This document shows, piece by piece, positions 49,055 through 53,191 of a DNA stretch of 64,000 nucleotides (position 1 is its first letter; the number at the start of each line of letters is the position of its first letter). Origin of the DNA: Promethearchaeota archaeon (GTDB lineage: Archaea; Asgardarchaeota; Lokiarchaeia; Sigyniarchaeales; SOKP01). Under the pieces are notes generated by a model that was given only the letters and a program-made list of their open reading frames with translations, was not told where the DNA came from and did no database searches. The DNA lies in assembly GCA_011364925.1 (NCBI GenBank), contig RDOA01000008.1, forward strand, positions 36,629 through 100,628, written 5' to 3'. The translations under genes were made by a program, and so were the position numbers.

Positions 49055-50202
49055 GAGAACCCACAGTTATAGAATCAAACGCAAACACATTTTACTTGAA
49101 GAAAAGGAGTATTCCTAAAGGATGCCAACAATGCTTACAAGGTGCTAAAGCAGTACTATTTCTTAACGGAATCTGTCAAAATCCAAATCATTGTTCGTGG
49201 TATTGCCCAATCTCTGAAAATAGAAAAGGAAAAAAAGACACCTACATAAATGAGACTCAGATCTCTTCTAAGGAGCAAATACTAAAAGAACTTGAACTTA
49301 TTAATGCGAAAGGTTTGAGCATTACGGGTGGAGATCCTTTATTTGAACCAAACTTAATAAACACATTGGATTATATAAAATTTATCAAAAATAGTAAAGG
49401 AAATAATTTTCACATCCACCTTTATACTAATGGTCTTAATTTTGACGAAGAAATCGCCAAAAAACTCGCTCAGGCAGGATTAGACGAAATCAGGTTCAAT
49501 CCCCCTAAAGAGCACTGGAAAGTAATTAAATACGCCCTAAACAAAGGTATGGTTGTAGGCGCTGAAGTTCCTGTTATTCCAAATGTGAAGAAATTAGAAG
49601 ATTTGAAGGAATTTATCTTTTATTTAGATAATCTAGGTGCAGATTTTATTAATTTAAACGAATTTGAATATTGCTTTCCTAATAGTCAAAACCTTAAAAA
49701 TCAAGGATATTTTCTAGAAGAAGGCACAATAGCATCTGTTAAGAACAGTAAAAAAAGTGCGATTTCCCTTTTAAAAGAAATCGCTCCAAAAGTTTCACTA
49801 CAAATTCATTTTTGTACTATTCGAGCAAAAGATTATTGGCAATTGAAAGAAAGGTATCTAAGACGAGCAAAATCGATTAAACTACCTTACGAGCAAATTA
49901 CAAGTGAAGGTTTACTATTATATGCTCAAATAGAAGGAAAACGAGGAGAAATTAAGGATTTTTCTACAGTGTTATTAAATGAATTAAAATTTCCTCGAAA
50001 ATTTATATCTTATGACGAAGATTATGTTAGATTACCAATCTGGATGGCGATCAGGGAATCTTTCATCGATTTAATAGATAAGTATAATTTAAAAGGATAT
50101 ATCGTAGAAATTACTCCGTTTAGAGATGATCGATACCGACAAATAACAGAAAAAACACCTATAAGGCTATTCAAAAAAGAGATGGGTTTAAATGAAGATT
50201 GA
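49051..50202 (+). CDS. radical-SAM-like Fe-S protein (non-canonical Cys spacing)
   Basis: Cys cluster CQNPNHCSWYC (C-x5-C-x3-C), plus ITGGDPL, HLYTNG and EIRFN strands typical of the radical SAM TIM barrel. Confidence 0.6.
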   Translation: MREPTVIESNANTFYLKKRSIPKGCQQCLQGAKAVLFLNGICQNPNHCSWYCPISENRKGKKDTYINETQISSKEQILKELELINAKGLSITGGDPLFEPNLINTLDYIKFIKNSKGNNFHIHLYTNGLNFDEEIAKKLAQAGLDEIRFNPPKEHWKVIKYALNKGMVVGAEVPVIPNVKKLEDLKEFIFYLDNLGADFINLNEFEYCFPNSQNLKNQGYFLEEGTIASVKNSKKSAISLLKEIAPKVSLQIHFCTIRAKDYWQLKERYLRRAKSIKLPYEQITSEGLLLYAQIEGKRGEIKDFSTVLLNELKFPRKFISYDEDYVRLPIWMAIRESFIDLIDKYNLKGYIVEITPFRDDRYRQITEKTPIRLFKKEMGLNED

Positions 50203-50638
50203 TAATGTAGATCTTAAAGATTTAGACGAGATATACGATCTAGAAAGAAGAACTTTTAAAAAGGATGCTTTTTCTAAAAAGCTGATTCTGAATTTAATCG
50301 TGAAAAATACTTTTTTTTTCAAGCTTGTTGATGGCGAAAGTCAGAATAATATTGTTGGATTCATCATAATTATACAAGATCGAGAAGATAGAGTGAATTT
50401 GGTTAACTTTCTAATCGAGAAAAAACATCAAAAAAAAGGTTGTGCCACTTATTTACTAAACTTTACAATATCAAAAATAAAACAATTGGATAAAATTAAA
50501 TCAATCGTATTAAATGTGAACTCTAAAAATGAAGTTGCCATAAATTTGTATCAGAAATTGAACTTTCGAATCGTTCAGAAAATAGAAAACTACTATCGGC
50601 AAAAAGAGAGTGCATACTTGATGGTATTGAACATTTAA
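50192..50638 (+). CDS. rimI: GNAT N-acetyltransferase, RimI/Ard1-like
   Basis: HQKKGCATYLL acetyl-CoA loop (Q/R-x-x-G-x-A). About 148 aa. Overlaps the upstream gene by 11 nt. Confidence 0.8.
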   Translation: MKIDNVDLKDLDEIYDLERRTFKKDAFSKKLILNLIVKNTFFFKLVDGESQNNIVGFIIIIQDREDRVNLVNFLIEKKHQKKGCATYLLNFTISKIKQLDKIKSIVLNVNSKNEVAINLYQKLNFRIVQKIENYYRQKESAYLMVLNI

Positions 50639-50746
50639 TCTTTTTCTAAAAACCAAGACTTATAAATAAATTCTATTATAAATTTTGTATAGAACCTATT
50701 GAAAATTTGCTCAAAAAAGGAAATTAAATAAGAGTGTTGAGGTAAA

Positions 50747-50902
50747 ATGACCCCATTAGGTGAGGAATTAAAAGAAGAAATCAAAAGAGGCGTTACGCTC
50801 CAAAAGGTTGACGAAGAAGACATGAGAAAACGCGAAGAAGAGAAAAAGCGACGAATGGAAGAATTAGAAAAAGTCAAAGAAGCCTTAGGAGCAAAAGATT
50901 AA
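50747..50902 (+). CDS. 51-aa K/E-rich microprotein with WH2-like N-terminal motif (absent from the ORF track because it is under 60 aa)
   Basis: My own translation: MTPLGEELKEEIKRGVTLQKVDEEDMRKREEEKKRRMEELEKVKEALGAKD. GAGGT Shine-Dalgarno 3 nt before the ATG, an in-frame stop 3 codons upstream, and oligo-T tracts just downstream. The competing minus-strand ORF (50635-50877) is Ser/Phe-rich antisense junk. Confidence 0.45.
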   Translation: MTPLGEELKEEIKRGVTLQKVDEEDMRKREEEKKRRMEELEKVKEALGAKD

Positions 50903-50906
50903 AGTA

Positions 50907-50944
50907 TTTGTGTTTTTCGTATTTTTATTTTTTTTCTTTATTTT
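50907..50944 (+). terminator. oligo-T transcription termination tracts
   Basis: tttgtgtttttcgtatttttattttttttctttatttt lies directly after the microprotein stop. Archaeal RNAP terminates on T runs. Confidence 0.4.
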
Positions 50945-51049
50945 AATGAAAAGACAGACTTAGGTGCAATTTAACTTCTTATTAACATTATAACATTTAT
51001 AGATAAGCAATAGTTGTGCAAAATTGAATTTAGGAGTTGGATTTCGTAC

Positions 51050-52123
51050 TTGAGAATTCTGGAGATTGATGAAAAAAACGAGATTATTTCAGTAAGAGCT
51101 GAAGATTTAAATGACTTATGGACATTGTATAATGTCATTGATAAGAACGATGAAGTGTCAGCTAGAACTCAAAGAAGAATTGTACTAAAAGAAGGTTCAA
51201 AAGGAGAAAGAAAGCAAATGCACTTGAAACTTAATGTTGAATCTGTCTCTTTCCATGAATTTACAAACAGGTTAAGGGTAAAAGGGACTATTTTAGAGGG
51301 TCCAGAAGATTTCGTTACGTTCGGAACCTATCATACATTCAATATAGAACCTGGACAGAAGTTGTCAATTAAAAAGGAGAAATGGCTAAAGAGCGAAATT
51401 AAACGCCTTAAAAAGGCATCCATTTTCGAAAGTGATTTTAATATGGTAATAGTAGCAATTGAAACGGGATTAGCAACTATAGCTCTTATTACAAACTTCA
51501 GTCATAACAGGATTGCGACAATAAAGAAAAATATACCAGGAAAGAGATACGAACAATCGTTCAGAAATAAAGCTATAGAAGAATTTTTTTTAGACATCAG
51601 CAAAGTTCTTAATGAAAATCTTAAGCGTGTTAATACTAAAGCACTAGTAATATGTGGTCCAGGAAATACGAAGGAGCGTTTTGGTCAATTCTTTAAAGAG
51701 AAAAGTTTAATTCCAAATTTACCAAAAACCTATTTCGTCCAAGCTAGTTCTGGAACGGAGAGCGCTATTTTAGAAACTATGAAGTCAAAAGAATTAAAGA
51801 ATCTGAAGGAACATGTAAAAGTTATACTGGAAACCGAGAAAATTGAAGACATTATGCAATTATTTTCAACAAATTCAGATCTTATTGCGATTGGCTTTAA
51901 CGAAATATCCAACGCAATTGAAAAAGGTGCTATTAAGGAATTGTTTTGCGTTGATGTTTTAATTAGAGGAGTATCGAAAGAAGAAAAATTACAAATCGAG
52001 CAAATCCTAAATGGAGTTGAAAAAATCGGTGGAGAAATTCATATTTTAAGTAGTGAACACCCTACGGGACAACAAATAATTGATTTAGGATCTCTCGTAG
52101 CTATTTTAAGGTATAAAATTTAG
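51050..52123 (+). CDS. pelA: Pelota (Dom34 homolog, mRNA surveillance)
   Basis: RILEIDEKNEIISVRAEDLNDLWTLYNVI matches the canonical Pelota N-terminus. eRF1-like middle and C domains. Start inferred at TTG 51050 with GGAG 13 nt upstream; the ORF track uses TTG 51014. Confidence 0.9.
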   Translation: MRILEIDEKNEIISVRAEDLNDLWTLYNVIDKNDEVSARTQRRIVLKEGSKGERKQMHLKLNVESVSFHEFTNRLRVKGTILEGPEDFVTFGTYHTFNIEPGQKLSIKKEKWLKSEIKRLKKASIFESDFNMVIVAIETGLATIALITNFSHNRIATIKKNIPGKRYEQSFRNKAIEEFFLDISKVLNENLKRVNTKALVICGPGNTKERFGQFFKEKSLIPNLPKTYFVQASSGTESAILETMKSKELKNLKEHVKVILETEKIEDIMQLFSTNSDLIAIGFNEISNAIEKGAIKELFCVDVLIRGVSKEEKLQIEQILNGVEKIGGEIHILSSEHPTGQQIIDLGSLVAILRYKI

Positions 52124-52141
52124 AAATCAAATCTTATTATT

Positions 52142-53191
52142 TTGGTCACGATTGTGAGTGAAGAAATTAAATACTTAGATAAAAATTCAGAGATACCCTT
52201 AATGGGTGTAGATTTTCTTGGAGTTATTGATAGAGGGACAAATATCATCGAACTTAAACCCCTAACACTCTGCAATTTACGATGTAAATATTGTTTTGTT
52301 AGTTCAGGCGATTATTCTACTAACTTTATCGTTAATTCACAATTTCTAGTCGAAAAAGTTAAAGAAACTGCTAAAATAAAGGGAAACTATGATCTTGAAA
52401 TACATATCGCTCCTTACGGTGAAATGCTACTTTATAGAGAATTATATGATCTATTAGGTAGCTTGTCAGAAATAAAAGGTATATCAATAATATCAATGCA
52501 AACTAATGGATTGTTATTGACTAAAAAAGCTATTGAAAGATTAAAAGAAAGCAAACTTACGAGAATTAACATCAGTTTAAATAGCTTAAAAGAAGAATAT
52601 GCCTCTTATTTATGCAATTGTGCTCATTATGATGTTGAAAAACTAATCAAGAATATTTATTCTCTCCTGAATAGCAATATCCAAGTATTAGTAGCACCAA
52701 TTTGGTTTCCAGGAGAGAACGAAAAAGATATAGAAGAAATCATAGAGTTAGTCCTCAAATTAAGAAGTGAAGGTTTTTCAAAACAACAAGTTCAAATCGG
52801 AATTCAGAAGTATTTGATTTATAAAACAGGTAGAACTCTAAAGAAAATACAACCAAAATCGTGGGACTATTTTTACCGACAATTATCACGATTAGAAAAG
52901 AAGTATGACATAAAATTGAAACTTGGACCAAGAGATTTTGGCATACATAAAAGAACGCAAGTTCCCAGTTTGAATCTTAAAAAAAACGACCTGCTAAATG
53001 TAAAAATCGTCTCAAGGGGTCGATGGTTAAACGAGTGTATTGGAAAAATCAACGATAACCAAGGAATTAAAATCCTTTTGAAAAAACCAGTTGTTTTTTC
53101 CGAAGAATTAGTAGGTAAAGTCATTGTAGCAAAAGTTATTAAAGCAAACTATAGAGATAATATACTTACAGCTTTATTTCCATACAAATAA
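52142..53191 (+). CDS. radical SAM protein with C-terminal TRAM-like domain
   Basis: Canonical CNLRCKYC (Cx3Cx2C). The C-terminal LLNVKIVSRGRW..GKVIVAKVIKANYRDNILTA is a TRAM-like beta barrel. TTG 52142 or GTG 52154 start. Confidence 0.75.
   Translation: MVTIVSEEIKYLDKNSEIPLMGVDFLGVIDRGTNIIELKPLTLCNLRCKYCFVSSGDYSTNFIVNSQFLVEKVKETAKIKGNYDLEIHIAPYGEMLLYRELYDLLGSLSEIKGISIISMQTNGLLLTKKAIERLKESKLTRINISLNSLKEEYASYLCNCAHYDVEKLIKNIYSLLNSNIQVLVAPIWFPGENEKDIEEIIELVLKLRSEGFSKQQVQIGIQKYLIYKTGRTLKKIQPKSWDYFYRQLSRLEKKYDIKLKLGPRDFGIHKRTQVPSLNLKKNDLLNVKIVSRGRWLNECIGKINDNQGIKILLKKPVVFSEELVGKVIVAKVIKANYRDNILTALFPYK

Follow-up and report, generated by a model that had tools for sequence, protein, structure and literature searches.

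A gene of 51 codons lies on the plus strand of the stretch of Promethearchaeota archaeon DNA considered here (64,000 nucleotides of contig RDOA01000008.1, referred to as a whole as the window), between the genes of a RimI-like GNAT N-acetyltransferase and of Pelota. The original prediction, made from the letters of the window, treated this open reading frame (ORF) as a hidden gene, and found in residues 7–23 of its product, a charged microprotein, a resemblance to WH2, the motif that occupies the cleft separating subdomains 1 and 3 of the actin monomer. The ORF at 50747–50902 is a real gene, and the WH2 reading of its product is partly supported by the evidence set out below.

The plus-strand frame is open in all 93 distinct relatives, despite near-saturated synonymous divergence, whereas the antisense ORF of 80 amino acids (aa), interpreted from the outset as the shadow of a K/E-rich gene, is open in only 62 of these relatives and broken in the remaining 31, which bears out that interpretation. 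Purifying selection, which the original prediction had suggested looking for, is strong: the mean proportion of synonymous differences (pS) among 80 distinct coding sequences is 0.66, that of nonsynonymous differences (pN) is 0.11, and the dN/dS ratio of the unsaturated pairs is approximately 0.11. Invariant residues are encoded by a variety of codons, six each for R29 and L40, for example, and five for R36. The translation was also read exactly, as were the GAGGT located 3 nucleotides (nt) before the ATG, the in-frame stop upstream from it, and the oligo-T tracts that follow the stop codon (Table 1), and the Asgard origin of the DNA was likewise judged correctly. The one epithet that did not hold was "hidden", given that the public annotations of metagenome-assembled genomes (MAGs) already call a hypothetical protein at this position, which makes the gene unnamed rather than hidden.

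The upstream element, ACTTATAAATAAATTCTATTATAAT, is nearly identical in approximately 90 distinct relatives, in the midst of variable intergenic DNA, and contains two TTATAA/TATA-like boxes at a spacing of 10 nt, which is probably the mark of a strong promoter or a regulator site. A sequence similar to the Shine-Dalgarno motif (GGTG/GAGG) is found no more than 15 nt from the start codon in 62 of 90 relatives. Downstream, the T5, T5, and T8 tracts occupy positions 50913–50935, and oligo-T is the established termination signal of archaeal transcription. A scan for sigma-70 promoters, a model that is not applicable to archaea, found nothing. With a promoter-like element and oligo-T tracts of its own, and a spacing of approximately 110–150 nt to each neighboring gene, the microprotein gene would form an independent transcription unit, which may be strongly expressed.

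Table 1. Features of the microprotein locus (positions in the window).
Feature	Position	Strand	Basis or remarks
Coding sequence of the 51-aa microprotein	50747..50902	+	ATG at 50747, TAA at 50900-50902; product MTPLGEELKEEIKRGVTLQKVDEEDMRKREEEKKRRMEELEKVKEALGAKD
Shine-Dalgarno-like GAGGT	50739..50743	+	3 nt 5' of the ATG
In-frame stop codon TGA, 5' of the ATG	50738-50740	+	
Element ACTTATAAATAAATTCTATTATAA(A)T 5' of the microprotein gene, containing two TATA-like boxes; its probable archaeal promoter	50658..50683	+	Predicted function
Probable archaeal terminator: oligo-T tracts (T5, T5, T8, T3, T4) 3' of the stop codon	50907..50945	+	Predicted function
WH2-like amphipathic helix at the N-terminus, residues 4-14 (L4, L8, I12)	50756..50788	+	AlphaFold2 helix; conservation
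Residues 15-22, GVTLQKVD, extended segment with LKKV-like motif L18-Q-K20-V21	50789..50812	+	AlphaFold2 model; conservation
Long, charged helix at the C-terminus, residues 23-46, bearing the family signature K-x-R-E-E-E-K-K-K-R-M-E-E-L-x-K	50813..50884	+	AlphaFold2 model; conservation
Antisense ORF of 80 aa, shadow of the K/E-rich gene	50635..50877	-	Stops in 31/93 relatives
Upstream neighbor, RimI-like GNAT N-acetyltransferase	50192..50638	+	Pfam Acetyltransf_1; NCBIfam rimI 70.3 bits, below cut-off
Downstream neighbor, Pelota	51050..52123	+	TIGR00111, 237.9 bits; start probably at TTG 51050

The microprotein and its family

The AlphaFold2 (AF2) model obtained with the family alignment has a predicted local distance difference test (pLDDT) score of 84, and divides the protein into an N-terminal helix (residues 4–14), an extended segment (15–22) with neither helix nor strand, and a C-terminal helix (23–46), in which the pLDDT exceeds 90. 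A Foldseek search of the PDB with this model returned no matches, which is unsurprising in a helix-loop-helix.

In the Loki-type clade, the protein is conserved over its full 51 aa, a feature overlooked in the original prediction, and I12, G15, V16, L18, K20, R29, R36, E39, K42, A46, and G48 are invariant, while L8 is at least 90% conserved, position 4 is occupied by L, I, or V, and D22 is nearly invariant. In the wide family, the invariant residues are L18, R36, and E39, with G15, E32, K33, K35, and L40 at 90% or more, and R36 is also retained in the units of the tandem arrays described below.

A search with the single sequence recovered 57 clusters of proteins of 48–51 aa, with 70–90% identity, and a profile search returned 481 matches. 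Intact homologues (48–52 aa) were found in at least 87 species-level Asgard genomes, counting one genome per GTDB species. Nearly all of these genomes are labelled as Asgard MAGs, of the Promethearchaeota and the Hermod-, Hod-, Thor-, and Odinarchaeota; the named sources of the wider family add the Sigynarchaeota and further Promethearchaeota MAGs, and every named member comes from an Asgard or unclassified archaeal MAG. At least 16 close relatives were recovered by a metagenome scan, and 56 proteins at E ≤ 1e-3 by an exhaustive hidden Markov model (HMM) search of 1.84 billion representatives. Most of the proteins of the wider family have 47–77 aa and the pattern [DE]ELKxxIxxGxxLxKVDxxELKxREEEKKKRxEELxK, and several have the full LKKV, including P0149, with ELMNEIQQGVKLKKVD, which is encoded on a tiny contig and matches the Asgard profile over positions 5–45 (E = 2e-7).

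A number of minor observations can be added here. Another member, P0147, is encoded on a tiny contig of 737 bp, which has a GC content of 54%, similar to that of the Sigynarchaeota locus. A contig labelled as "Candidatus Nanopelagicaceae bacterium" (DATKTW010000134.1) encodes a microprotein that is 88% identical to that of the window, with the GNAT-Pelota-radical SAM synteny retained, and is most likely a mis-binned Asgard contig. The automatic names of P0005, P0008, P0074, and P0239 ("multidrug resistance efflux pump", "spermidine/putrescine-binding protein", and "DNA-binding protein H-NS") are unsupported, and spurious for a K/E-rich protein of 50 aa. The NCBIfam search of the microprotein returned no match.

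Similarity to the WH2 motif

The motif of the window protein is I12-K-R-G15-V-T-L18-Q-K20-V21, in which the I-x-x-G-x-x-L spacing is identical to that of verified WH2s. In an alignment of eight tool-verified WH2 sequences taken from the output of the PDB search, the invariant columns are I, G, and L, the counterparts of I12, G15, and L18, and the N-terminal helix of the microprotein aligns with the LLxxI helix of WASP, WAVE, and MIM. The WAVE sequence given in the original prediction is exact, as seen in WAVE1 (3p8c_D and 4n78_D), and shares 8 of 17 positions with the window residues. A rough estimate based on amino-acid frequencies indicates that the pattern L-x3-I-x2-G-x2-L-x-K-[VT] would be expected approximately 0.5 times per proteome, so that the motif alone is not significant in a single genome, and derives its significance from its conservation and from the results of the profile searches. 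Three other candidates for comparison, that is, the eukaryotic ribosome-associated microprotein TMA7 (DEED...KKLEELK), the RPEL motif (RPxxxEL), and the C-helix of WASP, were neither in register nor supported by any tool, and were rejected.

The profiles were searched against 177,635 distinct PDB sequences. The Loki-type profile retrieved the tandem WH2 construct of N-WASP (3m3n_W) at rank 1 (E = 3.9e-5), the MIM WH2 (2d1k_C) at rank 2 (14.7 bits, E = 0.21), and N-WASP (2vcp_D) at rank 5 (14.2 bits), all three of which were crystallized on actin. The broad-family profile placed 3m3n at rank 1 and 2vcp at rank 3, while the profile of 25 tandem-repeat units returned only two matches at E ≤ 10, the WH2 constructs of N-WASP and Spire. 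The low E-values of 3m3n reflect the three near-identical repeats of this construct, and the 17-residue motif yields intrinsically weak E-values. The identity of the matches is nevertheless non-random, although the E-values of the single-copy peptides are at the noise level, and these unbiased searches, with WH2 peptides at the top, uphold the likeness first noticed in residues 7–23. One recurrent match at E ~0.1–0.3, aEF-1beta (1gh8), falls inside a globular domain and was discarded as noise.

The scores can be calibrated on genuine WH2s, which match one another at 15.3 bits (MIM-WIP), 14.8 (MIM-N-WASP), 13.9 (WAVE1-WASP), 16.1 (WAVE1-Spire), and 12.8 (WAVE1-INF2), so that the scores of the Asgard profiles to WH2 peptides equal those found between genuine WH2 families. 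Three Asgard profiles were aligned by HHalign with the eight WH2s in the same register, with P = 8.4e-5 (probability 60%), 2.8e-4 (41%), and 2.5e-4 (43%). When 45 representatives of the family were scored with an HMM built on six WH2s from the PDB, 38% of them reached at least 5 bits and 16% at least 10 bits, against 0.9% and 0.09%, respectively, of composition-matched shuffles, and the window protein itself scored 6.8 bits, in comparison with 4.8 for the 99th percentile of the null. The PDB ranks, the HHalign results, and the shuffles all point to a WH2 similarity above the compositional background, one of the checks proposed in the original prediction, albeit with E ~0.2 for the single-copy peptides.

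In Pfam, where the gathering threshold of WH2 is 23.1 bits, one distant member of the family, P0149, exceeds this cut-off, with 23.7 bits, and WH2 is the top or only match for P0144 (Sigynarchaeota, 16.5 bits, E = 0.007), P0141 (14.1 bits), and P0175 (13.4 bits). The thymosin family (PF01290) was not matched at E ≤ 10 by the window protein, the 92 close homologues, or 10 diverse members, and no gelsolin domain was found in the family members examined. The sub-threshold noise in the 92 homologues includes DUF3006 (in 65), DUF7067, Phlebovirus_NSM, and BioW. The DUF3006 match covers the C-terminal 40 positions of the model, with a best score of 21 bits (P0143) against a gathering score of 32.3, and may reflect either composition or a remote relationship.

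Tandem arrays, fusions, and known counterparts

In P0129, P0181, P0172, and P0177, from other Asgard genomes, the module is repeated in 4–9 tandem units of approximately 47 aa. Each unit comprises a [LM][LM]xEIxxG/PxxL+K[IV][DS] segment, canonically LM-x-EI-x-x-G/P-x-x-L-K-K-I-D, and, after it, a helix in which an Arg is conserved. The module is also combined with leucine-rich repeats (LRRs) in P0171 and P0178, the latter with an additional zinc-ribbon or FYVE-like tail, and follows a ribbon-helix-helix (NikA/DUF6290-like) domain in P0168.

A further family, of approximately 40 clusters and ~255 aa, has an N-terminal domain, the module (LIDFFKKGGKLEKPD...RREKERKQRMEELEKVL), and a C-terminal domain. 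In these relatives, which are encoded elsewhere and are distinct from the window protein, comparisons of sequences and models confirm the N-terminal domain as a profilin. The phmmer searches retrieved LokiProfilin2, LokiProfilin1, and OdinProfilin, including 5zzb and 5yed, at E ~1e-4, Profilin was the only or top Pfam match (21.6 bits against a gathering score of 25), and three members have a precomputed PF00235 assignment. The AF2 model of the fusion matched the OdinProfilin/actin structure 5zza_P in Foldseek (E = 5e-10, template modelling score 0.88, root-mean-square deviation 1.7 Å), and the best 50 matches listed are all profilins, or profilin-like or profilin-containing chains. The actin binding of Asgard profilins has been established experimentally. 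In the fusion model, the pLDDT of the module region is 40–60, and the model is therefore uninformative on the intramolecular arrangement.

The C-terminal domain of the fusions, of approximately 50 aa (P0188, ~205–258; columns ~270–322 of alignment A4), is highly conserved, with the consensus ITIKAEFxTDYIYDDFxLLRVKHKIExLLKxEFQ, and has no match among the Pfam families.

The exhaustive search of the 1.84 billion proteins also retrieved P0164 (E = 1.9e-5, profile positions 2–22), which contains three LKKT...DKSxP units. The DNA of its locus (positions 1–774) has GTAAGT donor-like and pyrimidine-AG acceptor-like sites and, given the donor-like sites, P0164 is probably a eukaryotic multi-repeat WH2/thymosin gene, of which the ORF was called through the introns.

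The microprotein shares with the WH2s (PF02205; WASP/N-WASP, WAVE, WIP/verprolin, MIM, and Spire) a three-turn amphipathic helix followed by G-x-x-L-x-K-V, as well as the I-x-x-G-x-x-L spacing with its three invariant positions, bit scores at the level found between families, and occurrence in both single and tandem forms. It differs from them in being archaeal, in the score of the window copy, below the Pfam threshold, in the nearly invariant D22, in the absence of both the Leu that completes the LL pair and the Lys that opens the KK of LKKV, and in the conserved charged helix of 24 residues that always follows the motif. Nor is it embedded in a multidomain protein of the WASP type, with its poly-Pro and acidic regions.

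Beta-thymosins, ciboulot, and tetrathymosin (PF01290) are comparable in a different way. Here too, a stand-alone, highly charged protein (51 aa, as against 43) is predicted to consist of an N-helix, an LKKT-like linker, and a C-helix, and the helix-linker-helix layout of the AF2 model agrees with the original remark that the size and charged helical tail of the microprotein recall beta-thymosin. Multi-repeat versions, with approximately 47 aa per unit, also exist in the Asgard archaea, and the tandem LKKT...DKSxP protein recovered with the Asgard profile has a eukaryotic look. Unlike the thymosins, the microprotein has no Pfam thymosin match, the sequence of its C-helix is unrelated, and approximately 2 linker residues separate its motif from the C-helix, in comparison with approximately 10 in thymosin beta-4.

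The tandem-WH2 nucleators, such as Spire, Cordon-bleu, VopL/VopF of Vibrio, and RavH of Legionella, resemble the Asgard arrays of 4–9 consecutive units, whereas the Asgard units, at ~47 aa, include the extra conserved helix, and no KIND, FYVE, or dimerization domains were seen in them.

The Asgard actin regulators found in the literature searched are profilins, gelsolin/cofilin-like proteins, and a linker of four residues inside the gelsolins, and in the same literature there is no report for Asgard archaea of a stand-alone WH2/thymosin-type protein, a tandem array, or a profilin fusion. The linker, a WH2-like element of the LKKT type in the Asgard two-domain gelsolins (LVDV, LKDV, LRRV, and LKHV; PMC9433394, PMC7444086, and bioRxiv 10.1101/2025.11.30.690169), is an L-x-x-V segment that lies on actin in crystal structures, and is the only WH2-like element described so far for these archaea. 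It consists of four residues between gelsolin domains, and lacks the amphipathic helix of WH2, whereas in the microprotein, which has no gelsolin domain, the unit of helix and G-x-x-L-x-K-V is complete and occurs in a protein of its own.

Actin binding and the alternatives

The window protein may be a stand-alone microprotein of beta-thymosin size, the N-terminal half of which is a WH2-type actin-monomer-binding module, a reading that the sequences and models support with a probability of roughly 0.5, and the odds that it binds actin monomers appear to be even. It can provisionally be classed with the WH2/beta-thymosin-like modules, as a distinct, composite type. Residues G15-V-T-L18-Q-K20-V21 would run along the surface of actin, like the LKKT/V segment of WH2, while helix 23–46 would either extend in the direction of the pointed face, as in the case of the thymosin beta-4 C-helix, or recruit a second partner. 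A single unit could act as a buffer of monomers, sequester them, or bring them to the barbed ends, and the tandem versions of 4–9 copies could align several monomers for nucleation similar to that of Spire, Cobl, or VopL, or for side binding. In the profilin fusions, the monomer could be held, clamped, or passed between the two modules; an exchange between thymosin and profilin has been documented (Xue et al. 2014, as cited in PMC7444086).

A number of observations weigh against this reading. The window protein has no match at E ≤ 10 with either PF02205 or thymosin in Pfam, a check that the original prediction had proposed and that the protein failed, and it is not filed here as a member of the Pfam WH2 family for this reason. 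Only one of its 92 close homologues matches WH2 (E = 0.16), and noise families such as DUF3006 are more common. In the PDB searches, the single-copy WH2 peptides stand level with the unrelated ZUFSP and aEF-1beta, and the median family member scores 2.9 bits with the six-WH2 HMM. Position 9 has K or Q in place of the second Leu of LL, Q19 stands where LKKV has its first basic residue, and L-x-K-P or L-S-P-V is seen in some members, although the first basic position also varies in genuine WH2s (LKSV in N-WASP and LKQS in Spire), and the second Leu is L/M in the tandem-array relatives. Over the wide family, the C-terminal helix, which is found in no WH2, is more conserved than the WH2-like motif, a feature that the original prediction also overlooked and that the actin mechanism leaves unexplained. 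In the case of the fusions, the profilin-like domain is also joined to a SIR2 deacetylase (P0230) and to helix-turn-helix (HTH) regulators of the TrmB type (P0231, P0232, and P0234) among the relatives of this domain elsewhere (P0230–P0234), which makes the profilin fusion weaker evidence of a link with actin than it first appears. These fusions could represent either sensors of the state of actin or a general regulatory use of the profilin fold. The gene neighborhoods examined of the profilin fusions, the tandem arrays, and the Sigynarchaeota-type member contained no cytoskeletal genes, whether of actin, profilin, or gelsolin. Predicted WH2s have also been wrong before, as the title of one preprint ("Rickettsia Sca2 ... 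lacks WH2 domains") would indicate.

Many of these observations would also fit a charged helix-linker-helix adaptor or regulator with a partner other than actin, its core being the C-terminal helix (K-x-REEEKKKR-M-EEL) and its likeness to WH2 either convergent or coincidental, given how easily the short L-x3-I-x2-G-x2-L-x-K-V pattern is matched. This explanation is possible, if somewhat doubtful. It would account for the C-terminal helix as the best-conserved part of both the wide family and the tandem units, for the weak or absent WH2 scores of many members and the failure of the window protein in Pfam, for the presence of the module on LRR and ribbon-helix-helix domains, and for the promiscuity of the profilin-like partner domain. 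It would also require three independent profiles to converge by coincidence on WH2 peptides as their top PDB matches, and is difficult to reconcile with the identical spacing of an I, G, and L that are invariant both here and in the verified WH2s, with the member that exceeds the Pfam cut-off for WH2, and with the tandem-array and profilin contexts, which parallel the known biology of WH2.

The remaining point against actin binding is the conserved synteny of the gene, which was missed in the original prediction. The order RimI-like GNAT, microprotein, Pelota, and radical SAM protein (50192–53191 in the window) is near-universal, at approximately 100 loci, counting those among L001–L108 with room for the test, one of which had no GNAT match. 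It is retained in L092, with its different outer flanks, and in the divergent locus L058, and the two Sigynarchaeota-type loci are the only ones with a different, unrelated context. The microprotein could thus be linked to translation or N-acetylation, an explanation that appears improbable. It might serve the RimI-like acetyltransferase as cofactor or substrate, for example, or work with Pelota in the rescue of ribosomes, in the manner of some K/E-rich microproteins associated with the ribosomes of eukaryotes. The Pelota of the window is genuine, and the residues that follow the initial Met of the microproteins (T, A, or S, or the ends MD/MN) are typical of N-acetylation substrates, so that, as a speculation, the neighboring acetyltransferase might modify the microprotein. 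This explanation is at odds with the promoter-like element and oligo-T terminator that the gene possesses, and with the gap on each side of it, as well as with the Sigynarchaeota-type member in its unrelated context. The module is fused to profilin, LRR, ribbon-helix-helix domains, or itself, but to no translation domain, and neither Pfam nor NCBIfam gave a match to a ribosomal or translation family. As far as is known, Pelota is also universal in the archaea, whereas the named members of the family come only from Asgard or unclassified archaeal MAGs.

The notion that the plus-strand frame is open by mere chance, in DNA rich in AT, or that the 80-aa ORF on the minus strand is the real gene, draws on the very short length of the ORF and on the K/E-rich codons that hold the antisense frame open in the window, but is refuted by the selection analysis, by the up to six codons found at invariant residues, and by the counts of conserved frames.

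The Asgard motif is as close to the eukaryotic WH2s as the eukaryotic WH2 families are to one another and, given this match, together with the tandem arrays and the profilin fusion, an actin-monomer regulation of the eukaryotic style may predate the eukaryotes. To our knowledge, WH2 domains have been regarded as a eukaryotic invention copied by pathogens. A conserved archaeal WH2-like module, whether as a microprotein, in tandem arrays, or fused to profilin, would place a third class of actin regulators before eukaryogenesis. It can be proposed, tentatively, that the WH2/beta-thymosin module arose in the Asgard archaea prior to eukaryogenesis, with the 51-aa protein as an archaeal thymosin that buffers monomers, the tandem relatives as nucleators independent of Arp2/3 and formins, and the profilin fusions as a primitive device for handing on monomers. 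If this is the case, monomer sequestration and nucleation would join the toolkit of profilin and gelsolin credited to the archaeal ancestor, of which the Asgard profilins and gelsolins are known to be active on rabbit actin in vitro. The question bears on filament nucleation and monomer buffering in Asgard cells, and is made more pressing by the dynamic actin-based protrusions and the crawling of cultured Asgard strains.

The 51-mer can be synthesized as a peptide, and is thus a directly testable reagent. Even without an actin partner, it would represent a tightly conserved and probably strongly expressed Asgard microprotein that has hitherto been listed as "hypothetical".

A minor correction concerns the neighboring Pelota gene. 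The ORF as listed starts with the TTG at 51014 and has 369 aa (51014–52123), while the orthologues have 357 aa. NCBIfam aligns with it only from residue 15 onward, and AGGAG lies just ahead of a second in-frame TTG, at 51050, which is probably where the Pelota gene truly begins.

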